Below are positions 10,167 to 37,055 of a DNA stretch of 64,000 nt, piece after piece. This DNA is from a bacterium (GTDB lineage Bacteria > Patescibacteriota > Minisyncoccia > Phycocordibacterales > UBA6899), in the NCBI GenBank assembly GCA_043743715.1, contig JAYTWK010000015.1, positions 6,576-70,575 of the forward strand, written 5' to 3'. A program made the translations under genes and the position numbers. The notes beneath the pieces are model-generated. The model was not told the DNA's origin. It saw nothing but the letters and a program-made list of their open reading frames with translations, and searched no databases. Numbering within the stretch: position 1 is the stretch's first letter; each line of letters opens with the position of its first letter.

Positions 10167-11696
10167 ATGGCGGAGTCGTACCCATTGAGCCATTTTGCTT
10201 GTATAATTATACCAAGTGATATGGGTCGCATATTCAAAAATATTCTCAAAATAGCCGTCGGTATATACGTATTCTTTTTTGCTTACGAATGGTGGCATCC
10301 GATGCCGGATGATCTTCTGGTTGCGCCAAAGACATATCAGGTCCCTGACGCGGGTATACATTTTTTTGCTGACACAAGTTATATCGATACCAAGAAAAAT
10401 CTTCGCGTCCTTGACCAGCACATCTGGGACCAAGTAGGAAAGATCATCGCAAAGGCCAAGCACACCATCACGCTCGACATGTTCTTGTATAACGACTTCC
10501 AGGGTCCGCAGCCGGAAACCGCTCACAAACTTTCACAAGAGCTGACCGACATGCTAATCGATAAAAAAACCACCGACAAGCATATCATTATTGCGCTTAT
10601 CACCGACCCCATAAACACAGTGTACGGCGGAGTGACGTCACCGTATTTCACCAAACTGATGTTAAGCGGAATTCCGGTCATCACCACCGACCTCTCAATT
10701 CTTCCTGACAGCAATGTCCCGTGGAGCGCAGCATGGCACCCGTTCATATCCTGGATGGGTAATTCGACCACTGGAGGCTGGCTCGCGCATCCGTTCGATG
10801 CGACAGGCGGCAAGGTCACACTACGCTCTTGGATGGCGCTCCTCAATATGAAAGCCAACCATCGCAAGCTCTTAGTCGCCGATCAGCCCATCATAAGCGG
10901 CAAGAACGCCGGCAAGCAAAAGATGACTACTTTTGTTTCCTCAGCGAATCCACACGACGGCTCAAGCGGGAACGGCAACGTCGCAATGCAAGTCGACGAC
11001 AAGATATGGCAGGAGGCACTCAGTTCAGAACAAATCGTCGCACGTTTATCGAATGCGGGACTTCCGAACTATGACGCAGCAAGCACCCTTGATGCAGACG
11101 GTAATGTTTCGGTCACACTCCTGCATGAAGCATTCATCAAAGAGCGAGTGCTCGAGCGCATCGTACATGCAAAGCAAGGAGATCAGATCAATCTGGTGAT
11201 GTTCTACCTTTCCGAGCGTGATATTGTGAATGCTCTTGCGGATGCATCGAATCGCGGAGTGAAGATCCGCATCATTCTCGATCCAAACAACGAAGCATTT
11301 GGGTTTCAAAAGAACGGTATTCCAAATCAGCCGATCGCGAGAGAACTCTTACAGCGCTCAAACGACAGCATCCAGGTGCGTTGGTGCGCTACATCGGGCG
11401 AGCAGTGCCATGCAAAGCTCATGTACGGTGCGAGTGCGACGAATTCATATATGTTCATTGGCTCTGCAAATTTCACCAGACGTAACATTGACGGATTCAA
11501 CCTTGAGTCCGACCTTTATGTGGAATCTACCGGCGTGCGCTTCAGTGCTTGGAATGATGCCAATAGCTACTTCGAAAAAATGTGGTCGAACACGGGCGGT
11601 ATATATACGAGCGACTACATGCTGCATCGCGATGATACATTCTGGAAGGCATCGCTAGCCCGGGTGATGGAATTTACCGGCATGTCTTCGTTTTAG
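10167..11696 (+). CDS. Phospholipase D-like protein (two HKD motifs, cardiolipin-synthase-like), membrane-anchored; alternative start at 10221
   Basis: N-terminal TM. Two HKD motifs: HRKLLVAD.. and HAKLMYGA...GSANFTRRN. Confidence 0.7.
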   Translation: MAESYPLSHFACIIIPSDMGRIFKNILKIAVGIYVFFFAYEWWHPMPDDLLVAPKTYQVPDAGIHFFADTSYIDTKKNLRVLDQHIWDQVGKIIAKAKHTITLDMFLYNDFQGPQPETAHKLSQELTDMLIDKKTTDKHIIIALITDPINTVYGGVTSPYFTKLMLSGIPVITTDLSILPDSNVPWSAAWHPFISWMGNSTTGGWLAHPFDATGGKVTLRSWMALLNMKANHRKLLVADQPIISGKNAGKQKMTTFVSSANPHDGSSGNGNVAMQVDDKIWQEALSSEQIVARLSNAGLPNYDAASTLDADGNVSVTLLHEAFIKERVLERIVHAKQGDQINLVMFYLSERDIVNALADASNRGVKIRIILDPNNEAFGFQKNGIPNQPIARELLQRSNDSIQVRWCATSGEQCHAKLMYGASATNSYMFIGSANFTRRNIDGFNLESDLYVESTGVRFSAWNDANSYFEKMWSNTGGIYTSDYMLHRDDTFWKASLARVMEFTGMSSF

Positions 11697-11746
11697 TCTT
11701 GTCTTTTAGCCATTTTGAAGGAGCATGCTATACTCGAAACCATGAA

Positions 11747-11866
11747 TCCCGTTAGAGGTACGAACATGGTATGAATCACTTTTCTATACATATGAACAAC
11801 TTTGCCACGCACTCCAAATTTATCACTCATCTACGGAAGCGCTGCGCTTCCTACCTCTAACGGGAT
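11747..11866 (+). promoter_or_regulatory. pyrH leader. A 14-bp long-range inverted repeat (tcccgttagaggta / tacctctaacggga) encloses an internal 8-bp hairpin and its 3' arm overlaps the pyrH start codon
   Basis: Perfect complementarity between 11747-11760 and 11853-11866. TATACT -10-like hexamer at about 11728. The ATG at 11865 sits inside the 3' arm. Confidence 0.35.
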
Positions 11867-12569
11867 GAAACTCCTCATCAAACTCTCTGGCGAAAGTCTC
11901 GGCAAGGGAAAGCATGGCGCAGAGGAGCGCTACTTTGAGCCGACCTTATCGTTCATCGCGGAGCAGATACGTATCCTGCTTGAAGAGAAACACGAGGTCG
12001 CACTGGTAGTGGGCGGCGGCAATCTCTTCCGAGGTCACGAACTCACCGGTACCTTAGCCATCGAGCGGCCCACTGCAGACTATATCGGCATGCTTGCGAC
12101 CGTGCAGAACGCACTCGTCTTGAGAGACTTCTTCGAATCGAAAGGGATTGAGACACGTGTCTCATCATCCATCAGCATGCCGCAAATCTGCGAGACCTAT
12201 ATTCCGAAGCGCGTCTTGCGCCACCTCGGAAAGGGTAGGGTAGTCATCTTTGCTGCAGGCCTCGGTGCTCCGTACTTCACCACTGACTCGACCGCAGTAC
12301 AGCGTTCACTTGAACTCAAGCGCGACCTGCTTATCATGGCGAAGAATGGTGTCGACGGACTCTATACCGGCGACCCACACAAGGACGTGACGGCAAAGAA
12401 AATAAAGACCATCACTGCCGGCGAGGTACTCGAGAAAAATCTTAAAGTTGCAGACCTCTCAGCGATAGCACTCGCTAAAGAACATGGCCTCACCATCAAA
12501 GTGGTTGGCATCGAACACATTTCTGAGGCGCTCGATGAATCGATTGGGTCTGTTGTCACTCCGTCGTAA
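11865..12569 (+). CDS. pyrH: UMP kinase PyrH (the tracked ORF starts at 11802; the ATG at 11865 gives the canonical N-terminus)
   Basis: LIKLSGESL...VVGGGNLFRG amino-acid-kinase-family motifs. Confidence 0.85.
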   Translation: MKLLIKLSGESLGKGKHGAEERYFEPTLSFIAEQIRILLEEKHEVALVVGGGNLFRGHELTGTLAIERPTADYIGMLATVQNALVLRDFFESKGIETRVSSSISMPQICETYIPKRVLRHLGKGRVVIFAAGLGAPYFTTDSTAVQRSLELKRDLLIMAKNGVDGLYTGDPHKDVTAKKIKTITAGEVLEKNLKVADLSAIALAKEHGLTIKVVGIEHISEALDESIGSVVTPS

Positions 12570-12598
12570 TTCCCATATTCCTAAAAACACTACTTCGT

Positions 12599-13144
12599 AT
12601 GTACGACGAAACCGCAATTGAATTTCTCCAAGAAGGTGGTCTGGGAGTACTCCCGACCGACACCCTCTATGGACTCGTCACAACCGCGCTTGACCCTGAT
12701 GCAGTCGAGCGAGTCTATAAAATAAAGCAGCGTAATCCGAGTAAGCCGCTCATTGTACTCATTAGCGACCTGGAGCAAGTCGAGCAGTTTGGAATTGTGC
12801 TCGATGACGCACTCATTGAACAGTTGAATAGCTATTGGCCAGGCAAATACTCTATTGTGCTCCCGACTGTTGATGATCAATACGAATATCTCTCATGTGG
12901 CACCGACACCATAGCGTTCCGTCTTCCCGATAACGATGAGCTACGCGAACTTATCAGAAATGTCGGCCCGCTTGTCGCACCCTCCGCTAACCCCGAAGGC
13001 TACCCGCCCGCAACCACAGTAGACGAAGCACAAAAGTATTTCGGCTCCGATGTAGACTTCTACGTCGACGGCGGCACTCTCGATGGCAAATCCTCCACCC
13101 TCATTCGTATCGAAAACGGAGAAGTGGAGGTGCTTAGAGATTAG
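12599..13144 (+). CDS. tsaC: L-threonylcarbamoyladenylate synthase (TsaC/YrdC/Sua5 family, short form)
   Basis: YrdC domain (LPTDTLYGLV...KIKQRNPSKPLIVLISDLEQ). Confidence 0.8.
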   Translation: MYDETAIEFLQEGGLGVLPTDTLYGLVTTALDPDAVERVYKIKQRNPSKPLIVLISDLEQVEQFGIVLDDALIEQLNSYWPGKYSIVLPTVDDQYEYLSCGTDTIAFRLPDNDELRELIRNVGPLVAPSANPEGYPPATTVDEAQKYFGSDVDFYVDGGTLDGKSSTLIRIENGEVEVLRD

Positions 13145-24550: not shown

Positions 24551-26452
24551 ATGGCAAAAATTTTAGGAATCGATTTAGGAACAACAAACTCAGCGATGGC
24601 TATCGTCGAGGGAGGCGAGCCGCGCATCATTGAGAATGCGGAAGGTGTTCGCACGACTCCGTCGATAGTCGCTATCGCAAAGACCGGCGAACGTGTCGTT
24701 GGTCTTTCTGCGAAGCGCCAGGCGGTCACCAATCCAAAGAACACCATCTATCAGATCAAGCGCTTCATCGGCCACAACTTCGAGGAAGAGATGATGCAGA
24801 AGGATAAGTCACTTGTTCCGTTTGAGATGCGTCGCTCAAGTAACGGCGGTATCGAAGTCCAGATGGGAGACAAGTGGTATCGCCCTGAGGAGATCTCAGC
24901 AATGATTCTCGGCAAGCTCAAAGCTGACGCAGAAGCAAAGCTCGGCGAGACTATCACCGAAGCGGTCATCACCGTCCCGGCATACTTCAACGACTCACAA
25001 CGCCAGGCAACCAAAGACGCTGGCAAGATTGCCGGCCTCGACGTGAAGCGCATCATCAATGAGCCGACCGCAGCCGCACTCGCATACGGCTTCAACAAGA
25101 ACAAAAATGAGAAGATTGTGGTGTTTGACTTCGGAGGCGGCACGTTCGATATTTCGGTCTTGGAAGTCGCAACGGCGGACGGCGAGAATTCAATCGAAGT
25201 GAAGGCAACCGACGGTGACTCACACCTCGGAGGCAAGGATATCGACCAGAAGATTATCAACTGGCTGGCAGAGGAATTCAAGAAAGAGTCAGGTATCGAT
25301 GTCCGCACCGACACGCTCGCAAAGCAGCGCCTCGATGAGGCCGCTGAGAAGGCAAAAATAGAACTCTCGAGTGCTGTAGAGTCTGAGATCAATCTGCCTT
25401 TCATCACCTCTGATGCAACAGGCCCGCGCCACTTCGTCATCAAGATGACCCGTGCAAAGCTCGAGGAGCTGACACAGGAGTTCATCGACCGCGCAATGGA
25501 AATCACCAAGCGCGCAATGGCTGCTTCGCCCTTCAAAATTGAAGAAATCAATGAAGTCATTCTGGTCGGCGGTCAGATTCGTATGCCCGCAATGCAGAAG
25601 GCAGTTGAGAATTACTTCAAGAAGAAGCCGAATATGAGTGTGAACCCTGACGAAGTGGTCGCTATCGGCGCCGCTATCCAGGGAGGCATTCTCCAGGGCG
25701 ATGTGAAAGATATTCTCTTGCTTGACGTGATTCCACTCTCACTGGGAATTGAAACCATGGGCGGGGTTGCGACCAAACTCATCGACCGCAATACTACCAT
25801 CCCCGCATCGCGCTCACAAATATTCTCGACCGCAGCAGATAATCAGACCTCGGTAGAGGTGCATGTGGTCCAAGGAGAACGCCCGCTTGCAAGTGACAAC
25901 AAATCGCTCGGGCGCTTCATGCTCGAAGGAATTCCCCCCGCACCGCGCGGTATGCCTCAGGTCGAGGTGACCTTCGACGTCGACTCAAACGGCATCTTGA
26001 ATGTGAAAGCCAAAGACAAGACCTCCGGCAAAGAACAATCAATCCGCATCGAAGCACGTTCATCACTTTCGAAGGAGGATATCGAGCGCATGCAGAAAGA
26101 AGCGGAACTTCACGCTGATGAAGACAAGAAGAAGCATGAAGAGATAGAAGTGAGAAACATCGCTGAGAGCATGATCTACACTGCAGAAAAAGCACTCAAG
26201 GATAATGGTGAGAAAGTCCCAGCTGATATCAAAACTGATGTCGAAGAGAAGATCGCCGAACTCAAGAAAGTGAAAGACGGCACCGACACAGAAGCTATCA
26301 CCAAGGCATCGACCGCACTTTCGGATACAATGCAAAAAATAGGCGAAGCGATGGCAAAAGAAGCCAGCACCCATGAAGGGGAGGCGCCGAAAACCGATGA
26401 ACCAAAAAAGGACGAAGGTGAAGCACCGACCGGCAAAGTCCACGACGTATAA
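24551..26452 (+). CDS. dnaK: Molecular chaperone DnaK (Hsp70)
   Basis: [18 protein letters not shown] and [11 protein letters not shown] Hsp70 signatures. Confidence 0.95.
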
Positions 26453-26458
26453 AAAGAG

Positions 26459-26482
26459 ACGCCCCTCATTGAGGGGCGTTTT
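26459..26482 (+). terminator. Rho-independent terminator after dnaK (acgcccctc/gaggggcgt followed by a T-run)
   Basis: 9-bp GC-rich stem with a 3-nt loop and TTT. Confidence 0.7.
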
Positions 26483-26499
26483 GGCGGTAGCGCGCGATA

Positions 26500-26763
26500 T
26501 CATCGAAAGCTGTAAAAACTTGCGAATCCTCCCCACACTGCAACCACGGGTGTAAGGCGCAGTAATACCTGCCGCTTCGACGAAGCCAACTTGGTGCAAA
26601 TTGCAGCGATCGAGCGGATCGGCGCGCCGGGAAGAACGTACTCAAACAAGATCGCACCAAGCCAGTACAAACTCCAGAACACCGAATAGCCGACGGACCA
26701 GTGGCAACCGATCCAAAAACCGAACAAGCAGACGACGGTCATGGCGACAAGTTCTTTGAACAT
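26500..26763 (-). CDS. Possible small two-TM membrane protein on the opposite strand between dnaK and dnaJ, in a locally GC-rich patch
   Basis: 87-aa ORF with two hydrophobic helices. No homology support, so it may be spurious. Confidence 0.25.
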   Translation of the reverse strand: MFKELVAMTVVCLFGFWIGCHWSVGYSVFWSLYWLGAILFEYVLPGAPIRSIAAICTKLASSKRQVLLRLTPVVAVWGGFASFYSFR

Positions 26764-26826
26764 ATTTTTCTCCGAATCGAAGAACGAGAATCAATAGGAG
26801 TTTTATGATAGCATTCATTAGTATAC

Positions 26827-26854
26827 TTGTCAAATTTAGATAACCTGCTATAAT
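26827..26854 (+). promoter_or_regulatory. Near-consensus sigma70-type promoter (TTGTCA, 16-nt spacer, TATAAT) upstream of dnaJ
   Basis: Hexamers read directly: TTGTCA at 26827-26832 and TATAAT at 26849-26854. Confidence 0.5.
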
Positions 26855-26912
26855 ATTTGAGTTAAGCTTAAATTTACCTAGCTACTATTTCCTAACTACT
26901 ACCCACTGACAT

Positions 26913-27989
26913 ATGGCAAAAAACTATTACGAAGTACTCGGCGTCGAAAAAAAGGCGACCAAGGATGACATCAAAAAGGCATTCCACAAGCTTGCGCACA
27001 AATTCCATCCCGATAAAAAGGGTGGAGATGAGGCGAAGTTTAAGGAAGTGAATGAAGCGTATCAGACACTCTCTGACGAAGGAAAAAGACGCGAATACGA
27101 TACATATGGACAGACGTTCAATGGTGGAGGGGCACCTCCCGGACATGGCCAAGGATTCGGCGGAGCTGGCTTTGGAGGACAAGGATTCGACGGCGTTGAC
27201 CTTGGTGATATCTTCAACGATTTTTTCGGCGGCGGATTTGCTAATCAGGGAGGACAAAGAGTCGAGCGTGGTAGCGATATATCAATTGATATCGAAATCA
27301 CTTTCGTTGAAAGTGTCTATGGTGCCGCCCGTAAAGTGGTCTTGGGAAAGACCGGTGTTTGCGATGTTTGCAGCGGCTCCGGAGCGAAGCCGGGCAGCAA
27401 AATGAAGAAGTGCGCTACCTGTAACGGTAAAGGCAAGGTGACTGAACAGCGTAGATCATTCCTTGGAACCTTCTCGACCGTCACCACTTGTAATGTCTGC
27501 AGCGGCAAAGGCGAGGAGCCGGAAGAAAAGTGTAAGACCTGTGGCGGCTTGGGTATCACCAAGAAGCAAGAAGAGATATCGATTAAAGTCCCTGCGGGTA
27601 TTCAAGACGGGGAGATGATTCGCATGTCGGGGCGCGGCGAAGCGGTTGTGCATGGCATTCCGGGTGACCTGTATGTACGCATTCATGTGAAAACTCATGA
27701 AGTGTTTCATCGCGAGGGTGACAACCTGGTGATGGACCTCGATATCAAACTCACCGACGCACTGCTTGGTGCCAGCTACATGATTAATGACCTTGACGGC
27801 AAGAAACTTGATGTGAAAATCCCCGAAGGAGTGAAGTTTGGTGACATCCTACGACTTAAAGAAAAGGGTGCCCCTACTGCGCGCGGCAGACGTGGTGACA
27901 TTCTCATCAATGTGAACATCAGTATCCCCACAAAACTCTCGAGCAAAGCAAAGAAGCTACTCGCCGAACTTAAGCAAGAAGGGATATAG
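26913..27989 (+). CDS. dnaJ: Molecular chaperone DnaJ
   Basis: J-domain with HPD (KFHPDKK). G/F-rich linker. Four CxxCxGxG zinc-finger repeats. Confidence 0.95.
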   Translation: MAKNYYEVLGVEKKATKDDIKKAFHKLAHKFHPDKKGGDEAKFKEVNEAYQTLSDEGKRREYDTYGQTFNGGGAPPGHGQGFGGAGFGGQGFDGVDLGDIFNDFFGGGFANQGGQRVERGSDISIDIEITFVESVYGAARKVVLGKTGVCDVCSGSGAKPGSKMKKCATCNGKGKVTEQRRSFLGTFSTVTTCNVCSGKGEEPEEKCKTCGGLGITKKQEEISIKVPAGIQDGEMIRMSGRGEAVVHGIPGDLYVRIHVKTHEVFHREGDNLVMDLDIKLTDALLGASYMINDLDGKKLDVKIPEGVKFGDILRLKEKGAPTARGRRGDILINVNISIPTKLSSKAKKLLAELKQEGI

Positions 27990-28026
27990 TCATAATTCAT
28001 AGTAGTCTGTATAATTACACTGACAT

Positions 28027-28425
28027 ATGAATCACAAAGATCTCATTTCAAAAGGCGTCGAGAAATCCTTGGGAACCGTTGCCTTTCACCAAAATGGACC
28101 ATTCAAAAGATATGAGCTATTGCAAATAGATGCGGTGACCGGTGATGGGGGATTCCGCGTCGTTACACATATCATAAGCGAATTGCCAAAACTAGTGCGG
28201 CCATATTGTGAAGTACACTATCACGATTTTGATGAGATCAATCTTATTCTCTCGGATGATGACACGCTCGCATATCGCATCACACTCGATGATGAAATAT
28301 TCGAAGTGCACTCTCCATCAACAGTGTATATTCCGGCAGGAGTACGACACGCTGCAGAAGTGATATCTGGTAAGGGAGTATTTGTCGCGATCACGTTCAC
28401 AAAGGATTACAAAGCGATGCAATAA
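28027..28425 (+). CDS. Cupin-domain protein (small, 132 aa)
   Basis: Cupin motif-2-like PAGVRHAAEV and motif-1-like HYHDFDE. First gene of the E1-like cluster. Confidence 0.5.
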   Translation: MNHKDLISKGVEKSLGTVAFHQNGPFKRYELLQIDAVTGDGGFRVVTHIISELPKLVRPYCEVHYHDFDEINLILSDDDTLAYRITLDDEIFEVHSPSTVYIPAGVRHAAEVISGKGVFVAITFTKDYKAMQ

Positions 28426-28426
28426 C

Positions 28427-29536
28427 ATGATAAAACCTAGATTCTATAAGAACAGATCCGCGCTTCCTCATGGAACAACATTCATCGACGCAACAGAAAG
28501 TGCGAGACGGGAGCTGTTCTTCATTGAACACCCTCATTTCAGTAAAACAGATCCAAAAGCAAAAGCTCCACTCAAGACTTTTCTTGCGCAGAAAAAAATA
28601 ACAACTTTAGTCTATTACCCGTGGCTACATACCGCTGTGGAGGTACCTTCGGAGGATATTTATTATCGTCTTCGCACCGCGCGCAACAGACATCTCATTA
28701 CCGAAAAAGAGCAGACGGTATATCGTAACACCGTCGTGGGAATTGCCGGACTTTCAGTCGGGTCCGCTGTGGTAGCGTCAATGGTCGCTACTGGTGGCCC
28801 AAAGCAGATCAAAATAGCTGATCCTGACTTCATTGAGATCACAAACCTCAACCGCATGCGTGCAACACTTCTTGATGTCGGAGCAAATAAAGCTGAGACA
28901 GTAGCAAAAGGGGTTTGGGAGCTCGATCCCTTTGCTGATATCGAAGTGTGGAACAAAGGACTACTGAAGACAGAATTGATCAAGTTTCTTATCAAAAAAC
29001 CGAAGATCGACATATTTGTCGACGAGATGGATGACATCGCAATGAAGGTGTCTGTGCGTTTTGCGGCGCGAGCAAAACGTATCCCCGTAGTGATGGCGAC
29101 TGATAATGGAGACAGCATTATCGTTGATATAGAACGCTTTGACCTCGAACCAAAGCGACCTATCTTTCATGGTAGAGTAAAACTGACACAAAAAGAAATG
29201 AAGCATATGGACAGGAGTCAGTTCATTGCACTTTCAACTAAGATCATCGACCCGACATATTTCACCGGCAAACAGCAGCAGTCGATTCTTGCTATAGGAA
29301 AAGAGCTTTCGGGTATCGCACAAATAGGGACCGCAGCGACCATCGCAGGAGCAGCACTGGCGTTCGTTGTACGACGCATCGCAAACGGAGACGAAATGCC
29401 TTCGGGAAGATATGTTATGGGTTGTGAATCAACGTTCATTCCAAACTACAACAGCGCAGGCGAGAAGAATAAGCGCAAACGCGACACAGTAAACTTTCTT
29501 AAGGCAATGACTGCACCGAAAAAGCGAGCGAAATGA
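28427..29536 (+). CDS. E1-like (ThiF/MoeB/HesA/MccB family) adenylyltransferase with a roughly 110-aa N-terminal extension
   Basis: Rossmann VVGIAGLSVGSAVVASMVATG, then ADPDFIEITNLNRM (the DxDxVExSNLNRQ motif). The N-terminal extension (YYPWLHTAVEVPSEDIYYRL...) is not part of the E1 fold, so it may be a peptide-clamp or RRE-like domain. Confidence 0.7.
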   Translation: MIKPRFYKNRSALPHGTTFIDATESARRELFFIEHPHFSKTDPKAKAPLKTFLAQKKITTLVYYPWLHTAVEVPSEDIYYRLRTARNRHLITEKEQTVYRNTVVGIAGLSVGSAVVASMVATGGPKQIKIADPDFIEITNLNRMRATLLDVGANKAETVAKGVWELDPFADIEVWNKGLLKTELIKFLIKKPKIDIFVDEMDDIAMKVSVRFAARAKRIPVVMATDNGDSIIVDIERFDLEPKRPIFHGRVKLTQKEMKHMDRSQFIALSTKIIDPTYFTGKQQQSILAIGKELSGIAQIGTAATIAGAALAFVVRRIANGDEMPSGRYVMGCESTFIPNYNSAGEKNKRKRDTVNFLKAMTAPKKRAK

Positions 29537-31006
29537 TCAGGAACGTTTAACCCAACGATGTTTCCTTCCCGGAACGGTATCTATCAAGCCGTGTACAACC
29601 AGTGAAATACGAGGGAGCGCTCGATCACCTAGGACAGAGTGGAGTTTCGCGTACTCGCTGTTGACGTGCGCTATGTTCTCGGCAATCTCTCTCGAAAGCT
29701 CGTCGACAAGCGCCTCGGAAGGCTTCTTGCTTTTTGCCAACTCAATAGTGACATCGAATTGCTGATCCATTTTCCCCGTATACGAAACGCTCATAGTGAA
29801 AAGTCCCGAGAGACGCGTCGCATACTTCGAATGTTCGAGCGCATACTTCAGGTTTTCATTATAGATGATTAACGCATAGAACGAGATAGCGAGGTCTTTG
29901 CGTCCAAACAAATAGATGAATGGCAATTGCCATTCATCGAGCGCGACACTTTTATCTTTGGCGAGCGATATGAGTGAAGTGTTACCGAGAATTTCGGCTG
30001 GCAAAATTCCGCCGTTGTCGCGAGTATTATAGCGAATCAAAGGAAGTCCTGCGTTTGCCGTGAGAACAATGGAATCTCCGGACACTACTTCAAAGTAGCG
30101 GGCCATGGGGTTGTATTGATAAAGCCCGGTTGCGCGGGTAAGGTCAGAGAAGTAGGGAGCATCGCCAGCGCATGCCTTAAGGTGACGACGCAAGAGTATG
30201 GACGCAGGGGTTTCGTGCGCAACAATTCCGGATTCAGCCATACCGTAAATATTTACCGAGCGGGAGAGCGGATCACTGTGTATCCCTGCAAGAGCAAAGA
30301 CACTATCTCTCCATGCTTCGCTTACCGCCTCGCCTGCAAAAAATAAACGCACATCCATATCTTTCCAGTTGATACCGTTCTCAGAGCCGTGATCAAGAAT
30401 ATCTTTGATGAATGGGGGGTAACCCGCGAGCACGACCCGCGAATACAGCGGCGCTAGTTTTTTAACCATATTGATTGTCTCGACTTTGTCGATACTCGGA
30501 GTGACGACGGTAATAGCGGTACCGTGCTCTGCTGCGAAGCGCACTGAGTTAAAGAATTCCATTCCGGCTATCCATGTCCCGAGCGAGAACGAATTCACAA
30601 AAAGTGTAGTGCCTTCATGTGCGCCAAAGATCTTTTCGTAGATAGGCTGGGTAATCTCGCCGATGATGAGATCCTGCGCTTCGCCACGTGGCCAAAAAAA
30701 AGGGACTCCCGTCGACCCTGAACTTTTTGAAACATAGGTTGCGCGAGTGAGTGTTCCGTCCCAGCTCAGCTCCTTGAGATCATATTGCGAAAAATAATTG
30801 ACCTTGTCAGTGAGTGGAACGCTGAGGAAATCCGATTCATTGCGGATGTCTTGATGTTTTATTCCTGCCTTTGTGAGGAAGTCTTTGTATGCAATTACGC
30901 GCTCTGCAGCCTCATGAAAGAGATGGAGTGCATTTGCAAATGCGGATTTTTCCGGTTGCCCGGTTGATTGTGTCATGCGGAGTTCTCTCTTTGGTGGGAA
31001 TTCCAT
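29537..31006 (-). CDS. PaaK / coenzyme-F390-synthetase-like adenylate-forming enzyme (ANL/GH3 superfamily); alternative start at 30976
   Basis: SKSSGSTGVPFFWPRG P-loop-like AMP-binding motif (compare the PaaK SSGTTGKP motif). Length and domain layout fit the PaaK/F390 synthetase family. Confidence 0.65.
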   Translation of the reverse strand: MEFPPKRELRMTQSTGQPEKSAFANALHLFHEAAERVIAYKDFLTKAGIKHQDIRNESDFLSVPLTDKVNYFSQYDLKELSWDGTLTRATYVSKSSGSTGVPFFWPRGEAQDLIIGEITQPIYEKIFGAHEGTTLFVNSFSLGTWIAGMEFFNSVRFAAEHGTAITVVTPSIDKVETINMVKKLAPLYSRVVLAGYPPFIKDILDHGSENGINWKDMDVRLFFAGEAVSEAWRDSVFALAGIHSDPLSRSVNIYGMAESGIVAHETPASILLRRHLKACAGDAPYFSDLTRATGLYQYNPMARYFEVVSGDSIVLTANAGLPLIRYNTRDNGGILPAEILGNTSLISLAKDKSVALDEWQLPFIYLFGRKDLAISFYALIIYNENLKYALEHSKYATRLSGLFTMSVSYTGKMDQQFDVTIELAKSKKPSEALVDELSREIAENIAHVNSEYAKLHSVLGDRALPRISLVVHGLIDTVPGRKHRWVKRS

Positions 31007-31054
31007 AGTGTTTTGTATAGAAAGCATTATACTAAATATACTTTCTCTATACCA

Positions 31055-32146
31055 ATGGTTATGTCCGATACGAGCAACACACAACCCCTTTCACAAACTT
31101 TTGTAAAAGAATTGATAGCCCGGGCGATACATGCACCGTCGGGTGATAATTCTCAACCGTGGCAGTTCTCTTTCGACGGCAATGCGGTAATTTTATCGAA
31201 TCTGCCCAACGCGGATGAAACACTCTACAATTTTCGTCAACGCGGATCATATGTCGCGCATGGTGCGGTGATAGAGAACTTGTCCCTCGTCGCGGGGGAG
31301 TCAGGCTATGACCTTGATATCCAGCTCTTTCCTCACATTCCCGGGGCAACTGCGAAGATATCATTTGTTCCAGGAACAAAAAGGGCCTCTGCGCTTACCC
31401 AAAAAATCGAGGAACGTGCGACGAACCGCAAGTCATATAAACAGACACCGTTTGAAAGCGGACACCGCAAGATCCTCGAGGATACGTTTGCTGGCAACAC
31501 CGGTGTACAGCTGAGATTCATTGAACAAAGAGAAGACATCGACACACTTGCAAAGACCGTAAGTCTCAACGAACAACTCCTGATGGAGAATCGTCCGCTG
31601 CATGATTTCCTCTTTAGTATCATCAGGTGGAATGCGGGAGAAGAGCGAAAGTTACCCGGACTATATCTCAAGACCATGGAGCTGCCTCCTCCGGTACAGA
31701 TCATGTTCCGTTTTGTACTCCGTCACTGGGGAGCTGTAGAAGCTCTGAATCACATCGGACTTTCCCGTTTTATTCCTAAACAAAGTGCACTGGTATACGC
31801 CGCCTCATCTGCGTTCGGCGCAATCATCTTGAGTGGAGATGCGAATGAAGACTTCGTTGCTGCTGGCAGGGCATTCCAGCGCATGTGGCTCACCGCGACT
31901 GGGGAGGGGATGAGCATACAGCCGACGACCGCACTGCCGTATCTCATGCAGCGGGTCACTGCGAATGAGGCTTCGGCATTCACACCCGAACACCGAGCGC
32001 TCATCAGTAAAGCTTACGGCAATATTTCGCGTACGTTCCATCTAGAGGGAAGAGAACATATCGCCATGCTGTTCCGCATTGGCTATGGAGATAAACCCAC
32101 CGCCGTTTCACTGAAGACCCGGCCGCCGTTCGCCGACTTCTCATAA
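31055..32146 (+). CDS. Nitroreductase-superfamily flavin dehydrogenase with a split or duplicated fold (SagB/McbC-like)
   Basis: APSGDNSQPWQF matches the nitroreductase signature (APS..N.QPW.F). A C-terminal second lobe (..QRMWLTATGEGMSIQP..) is present. At 363 aa it is larger than simple nitroreductases. Confidence 0.6.
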   Translation: MVMSDTSNTQPLSQTFVKELIARAIHAPSGDNSQPWQFSFDGNAVILSNLPNADETLYNFRQRGSYVAHGAVIENLSLVAGESGYDLDIQLFPHIPGATAKISFVPGTKRASALTQKIEERATNRKSYKQTPFESGHRKILEDTFAGNTGVQLRFIEQREDIDTLAKTVSLNEQLLMENRPLHDFLFSIIRWNAGEERKLPGLYLKTMELPPPVQIMFRFVLRHWGAVEALNHIGLSRFIPKQSALVYAASSAFGAIILSGDANEDFVAAGRAFQRMWLTATGEGMSIQPTTALPYLMQRVTANEASAFTPEHRALISKAYGNISRTFHLEGREHIAMLFRIGYGDKPTAVSLKTRPPFADFS

Positions 32147-32149
32147 GAC

Positions 32150-33838
32150 ATGAATGTACTCATTTCTCAATTGCATAGTTCTTCACTCGATCTGATTATT
32201 CTTTTGATTGCACTTGCGATCGATATATTCCTTGCATTCATCGTCTATCTCAGCAATACAAAAAGCGCCACCAACAAGGTGTTCTCACTCCTCACTCTCT
32301 TCATGATGTTCTGGCTCGTGACGACCTATGCGCCGAGGATACCTGAATTACTGCCATACTCACTCCTCCTGCACCGGCTAGGAATATTCTTTGCCGCAGC
32401 AATGAGTGCGCTTTTTTTCCTGCTTGCGCACACAATGCCGGAAGAAAAGATTCAGCTGAAGAAACCCTGGTCCATCGCGTTCTGGATGTCGACGCTCCTG
32501 ATGATGACCCTGAACCTCTCACCATATGCATTCGTCAGCAGCACTATGGTAGACGGAGTGAGCCAGCCTCAGCCGGGCATAGGATTCATTCCATTTGCAT
32601 TTTTTTCGACATTATTCAGCATCCTTACGGTGTATGTCCTAGTTCATAAATATCGGCACTCCTCGGGGCATATCAAGCGCCAGATATGGTTGGTACTTTC
32701 GGGAATAGTCATCATGCTTGCCCTGGTCATTGCGACCATTCTTATTCCAATCATGTTCTTTGACTCACTCCAGTTCCTCTCCTTTGCGCCGCTCTATACA
32801 CTAGTATTCCTCGGCATGACCGCCTATGCCATCACCAAGTACCAACTGTTTGATATCAAAGTACTTGTCACTCAGGCGCTGACGCTCATCCTCTGTCTGA
32901 TACTTTTTGCAAAATTCTTAGGCGAAGGAAACGTCAGCGGCCGCGCTGTCGACGGTCTTCTCCTGTTTGTTGTTTCTATTTTGGGTTTCTTTCTCGTAAA
33001 AAGTGTGCGGAAGGAAGTCGAAGCACGCATTGAGATTCGTTCACTCGCAGACGAGCTCGCAGCAACCAACGTACAGCTTGAAGTCTCAAACGAGCGACTG
33101 CGCATCCTTGATCAGCGCAAGAGTGAATTCGTTTCGATTGCGTCTCATCAGCTGCGTACGCCGGTGACCGCGATGAAAGGATATTCATCACTGTTGCTTG
33201 AAAACGCGTATGGAGCACTGCCGGAGAAGATGAAAGATCCGGTAGAAAAGATATTCCGTTCGTCGGACCGCCTGGCGCTCATGATCAACGACTTCCTGAA
33301 CGTATCGAAGATCGAGCAGGGGTCGATGACCTACGCCTTTGTACCTCTTGATCTTAAGAAGATGGTCATAGACCTCGTGCAAGACTTCCACATCGTGGCT
33401 GGAGAGAAGAAGCTTGATCTTGAAACCGACATTCCTGATGGCGAGAAATTCAATGTAGTCGCGGATGAAGGAAAGATCAGGCAGATTATCTCAAACCTCA
33501 TTGATAACTCTATCAAATACACTCCAAAGGGTAGCGTACGCCTTATCCTTGCGAAAGAGCCGACACACGGCGAGGACGGTATGATACTGCTCCAGATCAA
33601 AGACACCGGTATCGGACTCTCTCAAGATGACATCCACCATCTGTTCGGCAAATTTACCCGCGGGGCAGAGGGCTCGAAAGTGAATACTTCAGGCTCCGGC
33701 CTCGGCCTGTATGTGGCGAAGAAAATGATGGAAGAGCACAAGGGAAATATTTGGGTGGATTCAGAGGGGAAAGGGAAAGGCTCGGTGTTTTGCATAGAAC
33801 TACCTGAGTTTCACAACGAGCTACCGAAGACTCCGTAA
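32150..33838 (+). CDS. Sensor histidine kinase (7-TM N-terminal sensor, coiled coil, HisKA, HATPase_c)
   Basis: H-box SHQLRTPVTAMKGY. G-boxes GSGLGLYVAKKMMEEHKGNIWVDSEGKGKGSVF. Multiple N-terminal TM helices. No response regulator in the window. Confidence 0.85.
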   Translation: MNVLISQLHSSSLDLIILLIALAIDIFLAFIVYLSNTKSATNKVFSLLTLFMMFWLVTTYAPRIPELLPYSLLLHRLGIFFAAAMSALFFLLAHTMPEEKIQLKKPWSIAFWMSTLLMMTLNLSPYAFVSSTMVDGVSQPQPGIGFIPFAFFSTLFSILTVYVLVHKYRHSSGHIKRQIWLVLSGIVIMLALVIATILIPIMFFDSLQFLSFAPLYTLVFLGMTAYAITKYQLFDIKVLVTQALTLILCLILFAKFLGEGNVSGRAVDGLLLFVVSILGFFLVKSVRKEVEARIEIRSLADELAATNVQLEVSNERLRILDQRKSEFVSIASHQLRTPVTAMKGYSSLLLENAYGALPEKMKDPVEKIFRSSDRLALMINDFLNVSKIEQGSMTYAFVPLDLKKMVIDLVQDFHIVAGEKKLDLETDIPDGEKFNVVADEGKIRQIISNLIDNSIKYTPKGSVRLILAKEPTHGEDGMILLQIKDTGIGLSQDDIHHLFGKFTRGAEGSKVNTSGSGLGLYVAKKMMEEHKGNIWVDSEGKGKGSVFCIELPEFHNELPKTP

Positions 33839-33882: not shown

Positions 33883-34308
33883 ATGGATCTCACCATTCAA
33901 CTTGAAGGAATAAAACTAAATATACGGGTTGCGATACTTATTAAAACAGCAAAGGGGTACCTCTTTGAGAAGGGAAACAAAGGTTATTTATTTACGCTTG
34001 GAGGAAGAGTAAAGATAGGTGAAACTTCATTTGAGGCAGCAAAAAGAGAGGTGTTCGAAGAAATTGCCTATGATATTAAGAACATCAAACTTATGGCGAT
34101 TGTTGAAAATTTTTTTGGTCCTCTTGATGCACGGGTACAGGAGATCTGTTTTGTGTATAGCCATGAGGGAACAGTCGATATCAAATTGCCAGCAGAATTT
34201 GTCGAATTAAAAACATCTGAACTTGCCGACCAGGATATCAGGCCTGAGGTTATGAAAAAGATCATCGCTGAATCAAAAGATGGGATCAATCACTACATTA
34301 TTAAATAA
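33883..34308 (+). CDS. NUDIX hydrolase
   Basis: Nudix box GGRVKIGETSFEAAKREVFEEIAY (Gx5Ex7REUxEExGU). Confidence 0.75.
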   Translation: MDLTIQLEGIKLNIRVAILIKTAKGYLFEKGNKGYLFTLGGRVKIGETSFEAAKREVFEEIAYDIKNIKLMAIVENFFGPLDARVQEICFVYSHEGTVDIKLPAEFVELKTSELADQDIRPEVMKKIIAESKDGINHYIIK

Positions 34309-34356
34309 CATGGTGATTCGTTTATAATTTCCCTACAACGTAAAATTTGAATTATA

Positions 34357-35235
34357 ATGGAAAATGCGAATGAAATGTTGTTTTCTAGGCACCTTGATGA
34401 AGTCGATGACCTGAAAACATACGGGCGAGACGCACCACTCGAAAGATCACCAGAAAATCACGAAAAATTAGAGAAGGCAACTGAAGCGATATATCAAAAA
34501 ATAGTTACTTCGGGTAAAAAAGCGGTACTCTTTATTACTTCTCCAAGAGTGAGGGCAACCGAAACCGCTGAACTGATCGCAATGGGATTAACGCAGAGAG
34601 ACCCTTCTCTCAAAATAAGATTTTCTTCAAATGAGGATTTGAAAGCGACTGAACAGGGAGAATTCGTGCTGCCTGATGATTACGAGCAAAATAATTTTTT
34701 TGTGGGCCTTGATATCGCATCTAAGATATTCACAAAAGAAGCTCACCTGTCGGATGAGCAAGGAATGGAGGATAATATCTCTTATCGATTTGGGGATCCA
34801 ATACAATTACCTGATGGTAGCTACAAATATCCCGAGCTAGTCGAACACTTCACTAAAACAGGCGAATCATATGCTGAGACTCTCTCACGCATTTTCAATT
34901 CTGTTCTTGAAATGAGTGGGAAGTACGACAAGCTTATGGAAGCAACGGAAGTCGTGATCGTTGCACATGGTCAAATTTATCACGTACTAAGAGGGCTGTC
35001 AGAGATTCATCGAATGATCAAAGATGGTGAGATCGAATTCAAAAAAGGCGACTCAATGAAACTTATATGGAAAATCTATAATGATTGTGATCCAAGTCAA
35101 AAAGTAACAGGAATATGTATGCCATTAGATTTTAATGCACTAAATGACCCTGCTGCCATGTCTTTGCTTGAGGGAGAAAGAGAGATATTACAAGGAGCCA
35201 CTGATTCTGATAGCCATGGACATCGAAAAACTTAG
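34357..35235 (+). CDS. Histidine-phosphatase (phosphoglycerate-mutase-like) superfamily protein, tentative
   Basis: ...ITSPRVRATETAE... and ...VVIVAHGQI... resemble the SixA/PGM branch motifs. The N-terminal RHG motif is degenerate (SRHLDE). Confidence 0.35.
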   Translation: MENANEMLFSRHLDEVDDLKTYGRDAPLERSPENHEKLEKATEAIYQKIVTSGKKAVLFITSPRVRATETAELIAMGLTQRDPSLKIRFSSNEDLKATEQGEFVLPDDYEQNNFFVGLDIASKIFTKEAHLSDEQGMEDNISYRFGDPIQLPDGSYKYPELVEHFTKTGESYAETLSRIFNSVLEMSGKYDKLMEATEVVIVAHGQIYHVLRGLSEIHRMIKDGEIEFKKGDSMKLIWKIYNDCDPSQKVTGICMPLDFNALNDPAAMSLLEGEREILQGATDSDSHGHRKT

Positions 35236-35908
35236 CCGCGAGATACCACTCTTAGGCTGCAGCGAAAATATAAAGTGCTTTTTATTATATGGTTCTTTGC
35301 TTAATAAAAACCTAGGTGACAAAAAAGACTCTGACATCATAGTTGTACTCAAAGACATGGGGGCAGATCAAAAGGAATTGGCTGATTTTATTTATAATAA
35401 TCTTCCAAATCCTGATCTTCATGTGTATTCCTCAGAAGAAGTTGAGAGTGATCTTGCATTTTATACCAGAGAATATATCCTCGAATACCTTTCAAAAGGA
35501 TATGTTTTGTATGGCGAGAACGTATTCAAGAAAAAATTCAGTCAGGTGGCAAAAAAACAATACTGTGAAAGTATTCTTATCAGATCATTTGCGCATGTAC
35601 AAATGGTCAGAAAGACATATTTTAATACCAATCACAATCTTGAATATAAATCATCTTATACTAAAAAATACATCATTAGATTATCGAAGAATATACTTCT
35701 TTTTAAGGGCCTCGAGACTTACGATAAGCTGGACATCTTGTCAGATGAACAGGTGGTGGAAATCATCCAAAAAAATGATTTACTCGATGCGGGGTATCGC
35801 TTTAATGATAATACTCAGCCACTTGAATATTTCTTTAGATTATTTTGCGATCTTGGGCATAACTTGATAGATTTTCAAAATGAATTCGCTAAAGAACAAA
35901 AAGCCTGA
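35216..35908 (+). CDS. Nucleotidyltransferase-domain protein (KNTase-like: N-terminal minimal NTase plus a C-terminal helical domain)
   Basis: LLYGSLLNKNLGDKKDSDIIVVL matches the GS...D.D NTase motif. The start was reassigned to the ATG at 35216. Confidence 0.5.
   Translation: MDIEKLSREIPLLGCSENIKCFLLYGSLLNKNLGDKKDSDIIVVLKDMGADQKELADFIYNNLPNPDLHVYSSEEVESDLAFYTREYILEYLSKGYVLYGENVFKKKFSQVAKKQYCESILIRSFAHVQMVRKTYFNTNHNLEYKSSYTKKYIIRLSKNILLFKGLETYDKLDILSDEQVVEIIQKNDLLDAGYRFNDNTQPLEYFFRLFCDLGHNLIDFQNEFAKEQKA

Positions 35909-35967: not shown

Positions 35968-37055
<1,088 letters not shown>

Follow-up and report, generated by a model that had tools for sequence, protein, structure and literature searches.

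Organization of the locus

The 64-kb stretch of DNA that was analysed (hereafter, the window) carries five open reading frames downstream of dnaJ, encoding a cupin, an E1-like protein, a ligase, a nitroreductase-fold protein and a sensor kinase, all of them lying where the initial annotation had placed them. The short intergenic stretch 3' of dnaJ (27987..28026, forward strand) contains a promoter-like TAGTCA-17-TATAAT found by consensus scan before the cupin-E1 pair, the scan being pattern matching only, with a count of such sites in the region not above shuffled expectation. The cupin gene (28027..28425, forward strand; 132 aa) ends with a TAA at 28425, and the ATG of the gene for the ThiF/E1-like cyclase (28427..29536, forward strand; 369 aa) follows at 28427. 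The latter gene ends at 29536 and directly abuts, from 29537, the stop codon of the gene encoding a PaaK-family (ANL superfamily) adenylate-forming enzyme, here called the ligase (29537..31006, reverse strand; 489 aa). The ligase start implied earlier (30976, 479 aa) had to be moved most likely to 31006, from which the N-terminus reads MEFPPKREL, resembling the MAFPxIKNL of homologues.

Because of this new start, the AT-rich region from which ligase and oxidase genes diverge is reduced to 48 nt (31007..31054). It holds -10-like elements in both directions, with a promoter-like TTGGTA-18-TATAAT found by the consensus scan on the minus strand (ligase side), and these elements can be provisionally assigned to the ligase and to the oxidase-kinase operon. 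A TATAATA/TATACTA -10-like element recurs in all 11 divergent-type loci and TATTATACTA in about half of them; no conserved operator was seen in their divergent promoter regions. The operon comprises the genes for a flavin-dependent oxidase of the nitroreductase superfamily, Acg/TyzC type (31055..32146, forward strand; 363 aa), and for a 7TM sensor histidine kinase without receiver domain (32150..33838, forward strand; 562 aa). The two are tightly spaced, with 3 nt between them and the kinase ATG starting 4 nt past the end of the oxidase stop codon. The gene junctions and the domain assignments initially proposed were confirmed, the latter by Pfam (ThiF, Nitroreductase, HisKA_7TM+HisKA+HATPase_c) and, for the ligase, by its PaaK fold.

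The E1-like protein and the oxidase

The ThiF domain (PF00899) spans residues 86-322 of the E1-like protein, which carries an N-terminal extension of 85 residues. The protein matches the N half of the Rv1355c/TrzS family model NF005901 (E 8e-80, 269 bits, against 59 bits for the next-best ThiF family), while the oxidase matches the C half of the same model (2.7e-54, 185 bits, profile positions 367-711 of 722), both scores lying below an NCBIfam equivalog cut-off (476 bits) that applies to the whole fused protein. The oxidase was also matched by NF011424 (5e-61, profile 318-664 of 679), the Acg family (1.6e-39), PF00881 and the Acg structure 2ymv of the PDB. It groups with the Acg/TyzC-type flavin oxidases, so that its former SagB/McbC label had to be abandoned, and it keeps the family-invariant APSGxNxQPW, R121/N124/R125, W192, W278 and R341/G343. 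Sequence comparison found the catalytic motifs of the E1-like protein intact, and no conserved Cys is present in its alignment.

Both run colinear with one fusion protein, P0386, to whose C half the oxidase is 37% identical and whose gene order is ligase > fusion > 7TM kinase. In a relative (L173) they form one fused protein, with a ligase and a 7TM kinase on either side. The N-terminal extension is itself homologous to that of fused TrzS-type enzymes, which act on small molecules. Judged by homology, an oxazolone synthetase would here be divided into a TrzS/TyzB/OxzB-type cyclase half, the E1-like protein, and a desaturase half, the oxidase. Identity with the fused relatives reaches just 35-37%, so that substrates and even product class may differ from theirs.

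The ligase and its alternatives

No Pfam match was obtained for the ligase, and TIGR02155 (PaaK) matched weakly (2.6e-8, 32.8 bits versus an equivalog cut-off of 646). However, the motifs SSGSTGxP, YGMAE, RYxTRD and GRKD and the C-terminal Lys472 are conserved, and Foldseek searches with an AF2 model (pLDDT 88.5) gave E values of about 1e-23 to BT_0428 and PaaK1/2, with NatL2, ClxA, HCL and McbA also among the matches. NatL2, ClxA and McbA carry out condensations without CoA. The fold and adenylation motifs are those of NatL2 and ClxA (benzoxazole pathways) and of phenylacetate-CoA ligase PaaK, but identity is only about 17%. A weak resemblance to FlxY was also noted.

The ligase gene accompanies the E1 gene in most loci. 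In 10 of the 89 sequences compared (the window plus 88 fetched loci, including a few duplicates) its place is taken by p359, an alternative protein of 359 aa for which similarity searches gave nothing detectable and which is expected to be an acyltransferase; ligase and p359 are mutually exclusive. The OxzA/TyzA/TrzA-type acyltransferase, the defining third partner of the known systems, is absent here, and the ligase would seem to fill the slot that the N-acyl-amino-acid synthase occupies in known oxazolone clusters. An amide-forming role for it is purely conjectural; it could simply supply acyl-CoA or acyl-AMP for something else. A tyrosine-ammonia-lyase-like gene, whose closest relative is the flexirubin enzyme FlxA (618 bits), occurs in 30/89 sequences, always with the ligase and never without it, and is missing from most clusters, including the one in the window. 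The methyltransferase-like p314, which relatives have as a fusion with the oxidase, either of the two coming first, is also absent from the window.

Conservation of the cluster and linkage to the kinase

In most of the 88 loci the genes for E1, ligase (or p359), oxidase and kinase occur as a cluster, and the clustering recurs in more than 60 loci with differing flanks, an arrangement far beyond chance. The order ligase > E1 > oxidase > kinase was found in 19 of the 89 sequences, the same set headed by the lyase-like gene (lyase > E1 > ligase > oxidase > kinase) in 13, and the order with an inverted ligase between E1 and oxidase in 12, the window among them. The module is common to many ultra-small bacteria (Patescibacteria), and relatives from Streptomyces possess the three enzymes but no kinase. 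Related loci support the original proposal that the enzymes work together as a functional unit.

The same cannot be said of the cupin, first regarded as a cluster component. Pfam and NCBIfam searches gave no match, although the protein weakly matches the solved small cupins 7eqk and 6j4b and retains the metal ligands HxH...E...H. Its 53 homologues are about 132 aa long; in one locus (L089) the cupin adjoins E1 with the synteny of the window, and in three others (L090-L092) homologues lie in unrelated contexts. The gene was not found at the 88 related cluster loci or at any of the 80 genome loci, nor at the two close relatives examined (L086 and L088), which have an E1 with 70-71% identity. Lying outside the conserved core, the cupin is a facultative, lineage-specific and presumably metal-binding neighbour or accessory.

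The 7TM kinase follows the oxidase in 69/89 sequences, mostly from Patescibacteria. A reverse search from the 7TM domain recovered, at loci with at least 38% identity, E1 plus ligase or p359 in 21/22 (a count that took in close kinase relatives having enough flank) and the oxidase in 20/22, versus an oxidase in 0/15 loci below 30% identity. The kinase clade occurs with the enzyme cluster exclusively, and linkage is two-way, which upholds the suspected functional tie but fits equally well a kinase controlling the pathway, or its target process, instead of sensing the product. Alignment of the 63 cluster-linked kinases showed invariant H333 and N/G1/G2 boxes, conserved polar residues in the 7TM region (T41, R76, T224, Y226 and K237) and no invariant Cys in that region; a domain search found no PAS or PYP domain. 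One third of relatives have, beside the kinase, small single-domain receiver proteins whose 130-160 aa would apparently leave no room for a DNA-binding output domain. No response regulator was found in the 64-kb window.

Relation to known systems

CqsA/CqsS, AgrBD/AgrC and ComQX/ComP are quorum-sensing synthase-receptor pairs with multi-pass membrane kinases. As in these pairs, genes resembling those for signal synthesis adjoin, and are inherited with, a polytopic kinase, product secretion and sensing being here putative; however, there is no sequence relationship, and such linked receivers as occur are short and single-domain, with no evident output domain.

Reports of the oxazolone chemistry itself date from 2021 to 2025. 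In TrzS, an ATP-dependent cyclase of the ThiF-like type is joined to an O2-dependent flavin oxidase, and the protein was shown biochemically to convert N-acyl-tryptophan into an oxazolone by cyclisation and desaturation; TrzAS (Rv1356c-Rv1355c, Mycobacterium tuberculosis / M. smegmatis) makes N-acyl-tryptazolone, and its authors point to signalling genes nearby and to a possible signalling role (PMC12856293). The same chemistry has been demonstrated for TyzB/TyzC (PMC10404671) and OxzB (bioRxiv 10.1101/2020.06.11.147165). The cyclase and the Acg-like oxidase of the window are homologous to TrzS over their full length, N-terminal extension of the ThiF part included, with the ATP-binding Asp motif and the Arg/Gln-rich FMN region of the oxidase conserved. 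Unlike the fused TrzS, they are encoded by separate genes with the ligase between them on the opposite strand, and the acyl-CoA-dependent N-acyltransferase TrzA has no counterpart, a PaaK-fold adenylating enzyme being present instead. The hosts also differ, Actinomycetota for TrzAS and Patescibacteria, with a dedicated 7TM kinase attached, for the present cluster. The known oxidases use O2, yet many Patescibacteria live without oxygen, an observation that goes against the pathway set out below.

TyzACB (Rv2336-Rv2338c) has its ThiF cyclase (TyzB) apart from its NTR-superfamily oxidase (TyzC), as in the window. TyzACB and OxzAB (Pseudoalteromonas rubra) share the logic leading from N-acyl amino acid to oxazolone, but they use fatty acyl-CoA and an acyltransferase of AHL-synthase/FeeM fold, and they have no ligase, ammonia-lyase or linked histidine kinase. 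The Stieleria cluster for N-acyl-dehydrotyrosines combines NAS, methyltransferase, ThiF and nitroreductase genes, and the parts list of the clusters for stieleriacine, for thalassotalic acid and for kyonggic acid is that of the Patescibacteria clusters adding p314 (PMC12479983). Their end products are N-acyl-dehydrotyrosines and not isolated oxazolones, an outcome equally possible for the window cluster; they differ from it in using a NasY-type acyltransferase in place of the ligase and in having no linked kinase.

Proposed pathway and alternative readings

Taken together, the cluster probably encodes a form of the oxazolone (azlactone)/N-acyl-dehydroamino-acid pathway of OxzAB, TyzACB and TrzAS that is split and depends on a ligase, with a dedicated 7TM kinase. 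In this model, the PaaK-fold enzyme would adenylate a carboxylic acid and couple it to an amino acid through the amine, so that an N-acyl amino acid results, as suggested by its pathway position, its mutual exclusivity with p359 and the CoA-independent PaaK-family condensers among its fold matches. The acid is most likely 4-coumarate in relatives with the lyase-like gene and probably an aryl acid in the genome of the window, the window itself having no such gene. Based on homology to TrzS, TyzB and OxzB, the ThiF-like enzyme would then adenylate the alpha-carboxylate, allowing the amide oxygen to close a 5(4H)-oxazolone ring, which the Acg-type oxidase, again by homology, would desaturate at C-alpha/C-beta. 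The resulting unsaturated oxazolone could hydrolyse to an N-acyl-dehydroamino acid, so that an aryl/acyl-oxazolone or an N-acyl-dehydroamino acid is the most likely product. Finally, as the two-way gene linkage suggests, the co-inherited kinase may read the product or a derivative, or share the process that the product serves; product sensing is possible. The core chemistry is accordingly not undescribed, as had been claimed, the E1-like protein and the oxidase being two halves of the Rv1355c/TrzS family. Of the earlier idea of a small molecule or peptide made in a new way, the small molecule is favoured over the peptide; what is new is the context, that is, the replacement of the usual N-acyl-amino-acid synthase by a PaaK-fold ligase, the lyase-like gene added in 30/89 sequences and the linked kinase. 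The conservation of the module across many Patescibacteria makes the role of oxazolones testable.

TOMM systems pair nitroreductase-fold dehydrogenases with E1-like proteins, and the 85-residue extension, together with MccB and PaaA among the E1 structural matches, could indicate ribosomal-peptide or protein modification, in which the E1 would adenylate a C-terminus (as MccB, PaaA or a TOMM C-protein), the oxidase act on a heterocycle and the ligase acyl-cap. This is very improbable: the extension is shared with small-molecule enzymes, the oxidase is not of the SagB/McbC type, no YcaO was found, and the only small protein, the cupin, is not conserved with the cluster. The lack of a precursor-peptide gene was confirmed, every ORF of 20-60 aa lying inside a larger gene with about 90 nt of intergenic sequence in total, and the cluster indeed differs from TOMM, microcin C and thiamin/Moco layouts. 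That sulfur-carrier activation of the MoeB/ThiF type and an ordinary nitroreductase are neighbours by chance is hardly credible, in spite of public annotations of relatives as 'molybdopterin/thiamine biosynthesis adenylyltransferase' or 'tRNA threonylcarbamoyladenosine dehydratase'. ThiF, MoeB and TcdA equivalog models score 30-52 bits versus cut-offs of 152-376, the cluster contains no ThiS/MoaD-like gene, and the lack of a conserved Cys in E1 points the same way; profile scores and conserved clustering effectively refute this origin. Profiles and neighbourhoods thus contradict the outcome named initially as weighing against the proposal (MoeB/ThiF clade, NfsA/NfsB, no conserved neighbourhood), because the proteins belong neither to MoeB/ThiF primary metabolism nor to NfsA/NfsB nitroreductases.

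Tyrosine ammonia-lyase and a coumarate-activating ligase form the route to the photoactive-yellow-protein chromophore, and a tyrosine-derived aryl-acyl cofactor, chromophore or covalent modifier for the 7TM kinase or another envelope protein, with no diffusible signal, has been considered. Oxazolones, as activated acyl donors, can acylate amines. They readily hydrolyse and alcoholyse (PMC12856293), every locus with the lyase-like gene also has the ligase, and the oxidase-kinase spacing and exclusive kinase clade would suit such a role. Nevertheless it appears improbable, given a kinase with neither PAS or PYP domain nor invariant 7TM Cys, the lack of the lyase-like gene in most clusters and the Streptomyces enzymes without kinase. 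Somewhat less doubtful, but still unlikely, is an antimicrobial, membrane lipid or stress metabolite, in line with proposals for stieleriacines and tyrazolones, with the kinase as a mere transcriptional or post-translational regulator answering an unrelated external cue. Antimicrobial and stress roles have been suggested for known N-acyl-dehydrotyrosines and oxazolones. Kinases commonly regulate neighbouring operons; however, the associated receivers are single-domain, the divergent promoter regions show no conserved operator, and the sensor clade tracks the cluster strictly over phylum-level diversity, a pattern seen more typically in synthase-receptor pairs.

Gene organization of the cluster

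In the ORF list the five genes of the cluster occupy the positions assigned to them by the initial annotation, and the gene junctions described there match the sequence. The forward strand carries the genes of a cupin (132 aa, 28027-28425), of an E1-like protein with a ThiF domain (369 aa, ATG at 28427; Pfam ThiF at residues 86-322), of an oxidase of nitroreductase fold (363 aa, 31055-32146; Pfam Nitroreductase) and of a 7TM histidine kinase (562 aa, 32150-33838; Pfam HisKA_7TM, HisKA and HATPase_c). The ligase gene lies on the reverse strand, with its stop side at 29537. Since the ligase homologues are 488-492 aa long and begin with MAFPxIKNL, the ATG at 31006 (MEFPPKREL) is the likelier start, and the spacer between the divergent ligase and oxidase genes is therefore 48 nt. 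The search for a conserved operator in this divergent spacer turned up nothing beyond a -10-like element common to the loci. Co-transcription of the cupin and E1 genes is likely because they are separated by 1 nt and preceded by a promoter-like site at 27987-28015. The Pfam scan gave no match for the cupin or the ligase. The organism belongs to the Patescibacteria, and every protein of the cluster has its nearest relatives in metagenome bins of Patescibacteria or Parcubacteria.

Relationship of the E1-like protein and the oxidase to oxazolone synthetases

Since their discovery in 2021, oxazolone synthetases have been investigated in Proteobacteria and Actinomycetota. [quoted passage not shown] In M. 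tuberculosis this chemistry also falls to two separate proteins, TyzB and TyzC (PMC10404671); in Pseudoalteromonas rubra it is performed by OxzB, again a fusion (bioRxiv 10.1101/2020.06.11.147165; review PMC12596934).

The E1-like protein matched the NCBIfam model NF005901, "Rv1355c family protein", with 269 bits (E 8e-80), its residues 17-343 aligning with positions 36-341 of the 722 in the profile, versus 59 bits for the next-best ThiF-type model. The oxidase matched positions 367-711 of the same profile (2.7e-54, 184.6 bits), in addition to NF011424 (5e-61, positions 318-664 of a 679-aa model) and the Acg family of FMN oxidoreductases (1.6e-39); in the PDB, the Acg structure 2ymv was its only sequence match. 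Because the two proteins match separate halves of NF005901, their genes correspond to the two halves of the known fusion protein. The equivalog cut-off of 476 bits is missed by each protein, and also by the sum of their scores (about 454 bits).

The elements of an oxazolone pathway that these two proteins could supply are present. The E1-like protein is a predicted ThiF-like, ATP-dependent cyclase homologous to TrzS, TyzB and OxzB, with an intact nucleotide-binding site and the conserved motifs GxAGLSVGS, NLNR, K155 and D199-E-M-D202. The oxidase is a single-chain, two-lobe flavin enzyme of the Acg/TyzC type in which the family-invariant residues are retained (conserved motifs APSGxNxQPW, R121/N124/R125, W192, W278 and R341/G343); the SagB/McbC affiliation suggested for it initially has to be replaced by this NCBIfam assignment. 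Cyclase and oxidase genes, with a single gene between them in the window, are adjacent in at least 19 related loci and fused in the proteins P0386 (locus L173) and P0438. P0386 (732 aa) shares 35% identity with E1 residues 20-361 and 37% with oxidase residues 16-357, and its gene stands between those of a ligase and a 7TM kinase (ligase, fusion, kinase); it is a Rosetta-stone fusion belonging to this type of cluster. With the oxidase as query, an exhaustive HMMER search returned 635 representatives at E<=1e-30, mostly stand-alone proteins of ~350 aa and a few fusions. One large protein, P0319 (1593 aa), combines two Acg/TyzC-type oxidase domains with glycosyltransferase domains (EryCIII-like, Glyco_tran_28_C, UDPGT). 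The closest solved structure to the E1-like protein is AclA (9egb), on whose function the literature searches found nothing.

The cyclase/oxidase chemistry is thus already known from TrzS, TyzB/TyzC and OxzB, and for this reason the description of the cluster as an undescribed modification system was too strong.

The ligase and its replacements

The known OxzAB, TyzACB and TrzAS pathways begin with an acyltransferase acting on acyl-CoA or acyl-ACP. In contrast, no N-acyl-amino-acid synthase of the OxzA/TyzA/TrzA type (AHL-synthase/FeeM fold) was found by Pfam or NCBIfam in 28010-33838, and the clusters described here carry a PaaK-fold ligase or, in 10 loci, the alternative protein p359. The ligase model (pLDDT 88.5) has the PaaK-family fold, with Foldseek E values of about 1e-23 to BT_0428 and PaaK1/2 and further matches to NatL2, ClxA, 2-hydroxyisobutyryl-CoA ligase and the amide synthetase McbA. 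The ANL adenylation motifs accompany this fold: SSGSTGxP, YGMAE, RYxTRD and GRKD plus the C-terminal lysine (A3, A5, A8 and A10-Lys) are kept in 30 ligase homologues. Against the PaaK equivalog model TIGR02155 the ligase scored 32.8 bits, the cut-off being 646, and its neighbours are the E1, oxidase and kinase genes, not paaABCDE.

Ligase and p359 are mutually exclusive and use the same slot in the 89 sequences compared. The latter, 326-370 aa long, stands in place of the ligase in some 10 clusters (e.g., locus L003, 9110-10189, and seven other loci). No similarity of p359 was detected by Pfam scan, NCBIfam scan, PDB profile search or hhalign comparison with the ligase. It has an invariant R152-M-C154 within "SSSRMCGIHPY", a stretch that may recall N-acyl-amino-acid synthases. 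Thirty loci, all of them with the ligase, also have a gene for an aromatic ammonia-lyase whose best match is the flexirubin tyrosine ammonia-lyase FlxA (618 bits). Three features of the ligase underlie its proposed role in N-acylation: it stands where the known pathways have their acyltransferase, it never shares a cluster with p359, and the lyase-like gene has no other partner.

Conservation across genomes

A scan of species-representative genomes gave 257 stretches encoding E1 relatives, with 80 loci returned. The homologues of the E1-like protein whose gene context was inspected (49-71% identity) are accompanied by the same gene set in unrelated surroundings (pilM, IF3, dnaJ, a DHQ-synthase-like gene, CTP synthase). 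Architectures were counted by tblastn with the window proteins in 89 sequences, that is, 88 fetched loci (including a few duplicates) and the window. The most frequent order was ligase, E1, oxidase and kinase (19/89), followed by lyase-like gene, E1, ligase, oxidase and kinase (13/89) and by the arrangement of the window with its reversed ligase (12, window counted); E1, p359, oxidase and kinase with variants made up another 10, the remaining sequences being minor permutations. In some loci a 314-aa protein with weak methyltransferase signals (p314) is encoded between oxidase and kinase, as at 11682-12626 of locus L005, and fusions with the oxidase exist in which it is either the N-terminal or the C-terminal partner (P0301, P0346, P0353, P0316 and P0436). 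The p314-bearing clusters resemble in their parts list the stieleriacine clusters of Planctomycetota, where an NAS, a methyltransferase, a ThiF protein and a nitroreductase lead to N-acyl-dehydrotyrosines (PMC12479983).

Co-occurrence of the five genes, as envisaged initially, holds in most related loci for E1, ligase (or p359), oxidase and kinase, and fails for the cupin, which tblastn did not find in any of the 88 related cluster loci, close relatives among them. The cupin has the metal ligands HxH...E...H, weak similarity to small solved cupins and 53 homologues of the same size. The whole synteny of the window (DnaK-DnaJ ... cupin-E1-ligase-oxidase-kinase-TrpRS) is repeated in locus L089, and about ten further contigs, going by their coinciding lengths, seem to carry both cupin and E1 genes; other cupin genes stand among metal-homeostasis or glycosyltransferase genes. 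Given its absence from the related loci and its frequent occurrence in unrelated contexts, a role as substrate or core enzyme was rejected, and the cupin is treated here as a facultative neighbour.

Ligase, E1 and oxidase genes are also found in Streptomyces, without the 7TM kinase. In Streptomyces sp. NPDC018045 (locus L070, 6169-10072), as in L065, L068 and L082, the stop and start codons of the trio overlap and a PIN-domain ORF comes next.

The 7TM sensor kinase and receiver proteins

The kinase has the H-box histidine and the N, G1 and G2 boxes of a sensor kinase (HisKA, HATPase_c). Among 63 cluster-linked orthologues, the phospho-acceptor H333 and residues N449, N453, D485, G487, G489, G517 and G519 are at least 97% conserved; the 7TM region has F45, W55, R76, G143, G185, T224, Y226 and K237 as conserved residues and no invariant Cys. 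In the reverse test, metagenomes were scanned with the 7TM domain alone, taking 14 closer kinase sensors as queries. Of the relatives with at least 38% identity and at least 4 kb upstream, 21/22 were linked to E1 and ligase or p359, and 20/22 to the oxidase. Around half of those with 30-37% identity had cluster enzymes, and below 30% the oxidase was found in 0/15. This fall of enzyme linkage with 7TM identity (for the oxidase, from 20/22 to 0/15 loci) indicates a sensor clade specific to the enzyme cluster.

The 64-kb window yielded no receiver-domain ORF, and hence no nearby response regulator. Of the 88 related loci, 32 encode small single-domain receivers (130-160 aa) right next to the cluster, on its E1 side just upstream of E1 or the lyase-like gene, or else downstream of the kinase; examples are L009 7498-7989, L051 7513-7983, L013 14959-15405 and L015 13225-13623. 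Locus L003 encodes, a few genes downstream, one receiver on its own and another fused to a T2SSE/PilB-type ATPase, and in L001 the cluster adjoins pilM.

Alternative readings of the cluster

The initial annotation likened the E1-like protein to MccB and PaaA on account of its N-terminal extension, and the presence of a nitroreductase-fold enzyme would also suit a TOMM or microcin pathway. Enzymes acting on small molecules have this extension too, and neither an N-terminal peptide-clamp (RRE-like) domain nor a cognate short precursor peptide was found. As already recognized in that annotation, Pfam places no YcaO domain in any cluster protein, and the search for free-standing small ORFs in the cluster yielded no precursor-peptide gene; a TOMM/microcin reading was rejected on these grounds. 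Primary metabolism would make the protein a MoeB or ThiF. The MoeB, ThiF and TcdA models do match, with 30-52 bits versus equivalog cut-offs of 152-376, and the protein has no invariant Cys and no ThiS/MoaD partner or other ubiquitin-like small gene in the cluster. Scores and context thus led to rejection of this reading, in line with the initial view that the layout is not that of thiamin or Moco synthesis. A defence E1-E2 system (CBASS Cap2, Bil or 6A-MBL) was likewise rejected: PADLOC gave generic Rossmann-core matches of <=40 bits for the E1-like protein, and the other four proteins had no hits apart from a match of the kinase to a generic ATPase domain.

Proposed pathway and possible signalling role

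By homology to the characterised enzymes, the ThiF-like protein would act on an N-acyl amino acid, adenylating its carboxylate and closing the oxazolone ring, after which the flavin oxidase would introduce the C-alpha/C-beta double bond. The ligase would make the N-acyl amino acid, probably from 4-coumarate in the lyase-bearing loci. The proposed product is an N-acyl 4-arylidene-oxazol-5-one or an N-acyl-dehydroamino acid. More tentatively than the ligase step, the kinase may read this product. Counted against the mechanism are the similarity below equivalog level, the absence of a regulator in the window and the O2 dependence of the known oxidases.

A more far-reaching reading, which we consider less likely than not, is that the cluster constitutes a self-contained signalling module of Patescibacteria. 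Ligase, cyclase and oxidase would build an aryl-acyl oxazolone or N-acyl-dehydroamino acid (in lyase-bearing clusters, out of coumarate derived from tyrosine), the 7TM kinase that co-evolves with them would be its receptor, and the signal would pass to single-domain receivers acting on cell-surface or attachment machinery, not on transcription. If true, these reduced, mostly host-attached bacteria would gain their first autoinducer-like synthase-receptor system, and bacterial oxazolones their first receptor and first physiological role. The primary papers on oxazolone synthetases describe the physiological role as unknown and offer signalling as speculation; the kinase, as a concrete candidate receptor, makes a signalling role testable for these compounds.

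Literature searches combining oxazolone and Patescibacteria returned nothing relevant, and no description was found of oxazolone-type clusters across this group or of their dedicated 7TM kinase, nor of a ligase-dependent (sometimes lyase-fed) entry or a split divergent gene order. The cluster points to a substrate-making route other than those described, in which an ATP-dependent ligase, supplied in some clusters by a tyrosine-ammonia-lyase-like enzyme, would take the place of an acyl-CoA transferase. The compact cyclase/oxidase module with its own sensor kinase is conserved in Patescibacteria, whose genomes are tiny and hold very little secondary metabolism. The assignments also correct the database labels "molybdopterin/thiamine adenylyltransferase", "phenylacetate-CoA ligase" and "hypothetical protein".

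Flanking regions

DnaK and DnaJ genes (24551-27989) lie upstream of the cluster in the window, and GrpE-DnaK-DnaJ upstream of it in L005 (2801-6374) and L089 (1443-5137). In L005, a tyrosine-ammonia-lyase-like gene is located between DnaJ and E1, directly upstream of the latter, that is, in the place of the cupin in the window. On the other side, the stretch 33883-35908, between kinase and TrpRS (35994-37055), has 37% GC versus about 48-50% elsewhere; it encodes a NUDIX hydrolase, a histidine-phosphatase-like protein and a Pol-beta-type nucleotidyltransferase, the ORFs of the last two overlapping by 92 nt. Because TrpRS directly follows the kinase in L089 and two other genes separate them in L005, this low-GC stretch looks like an insertion.
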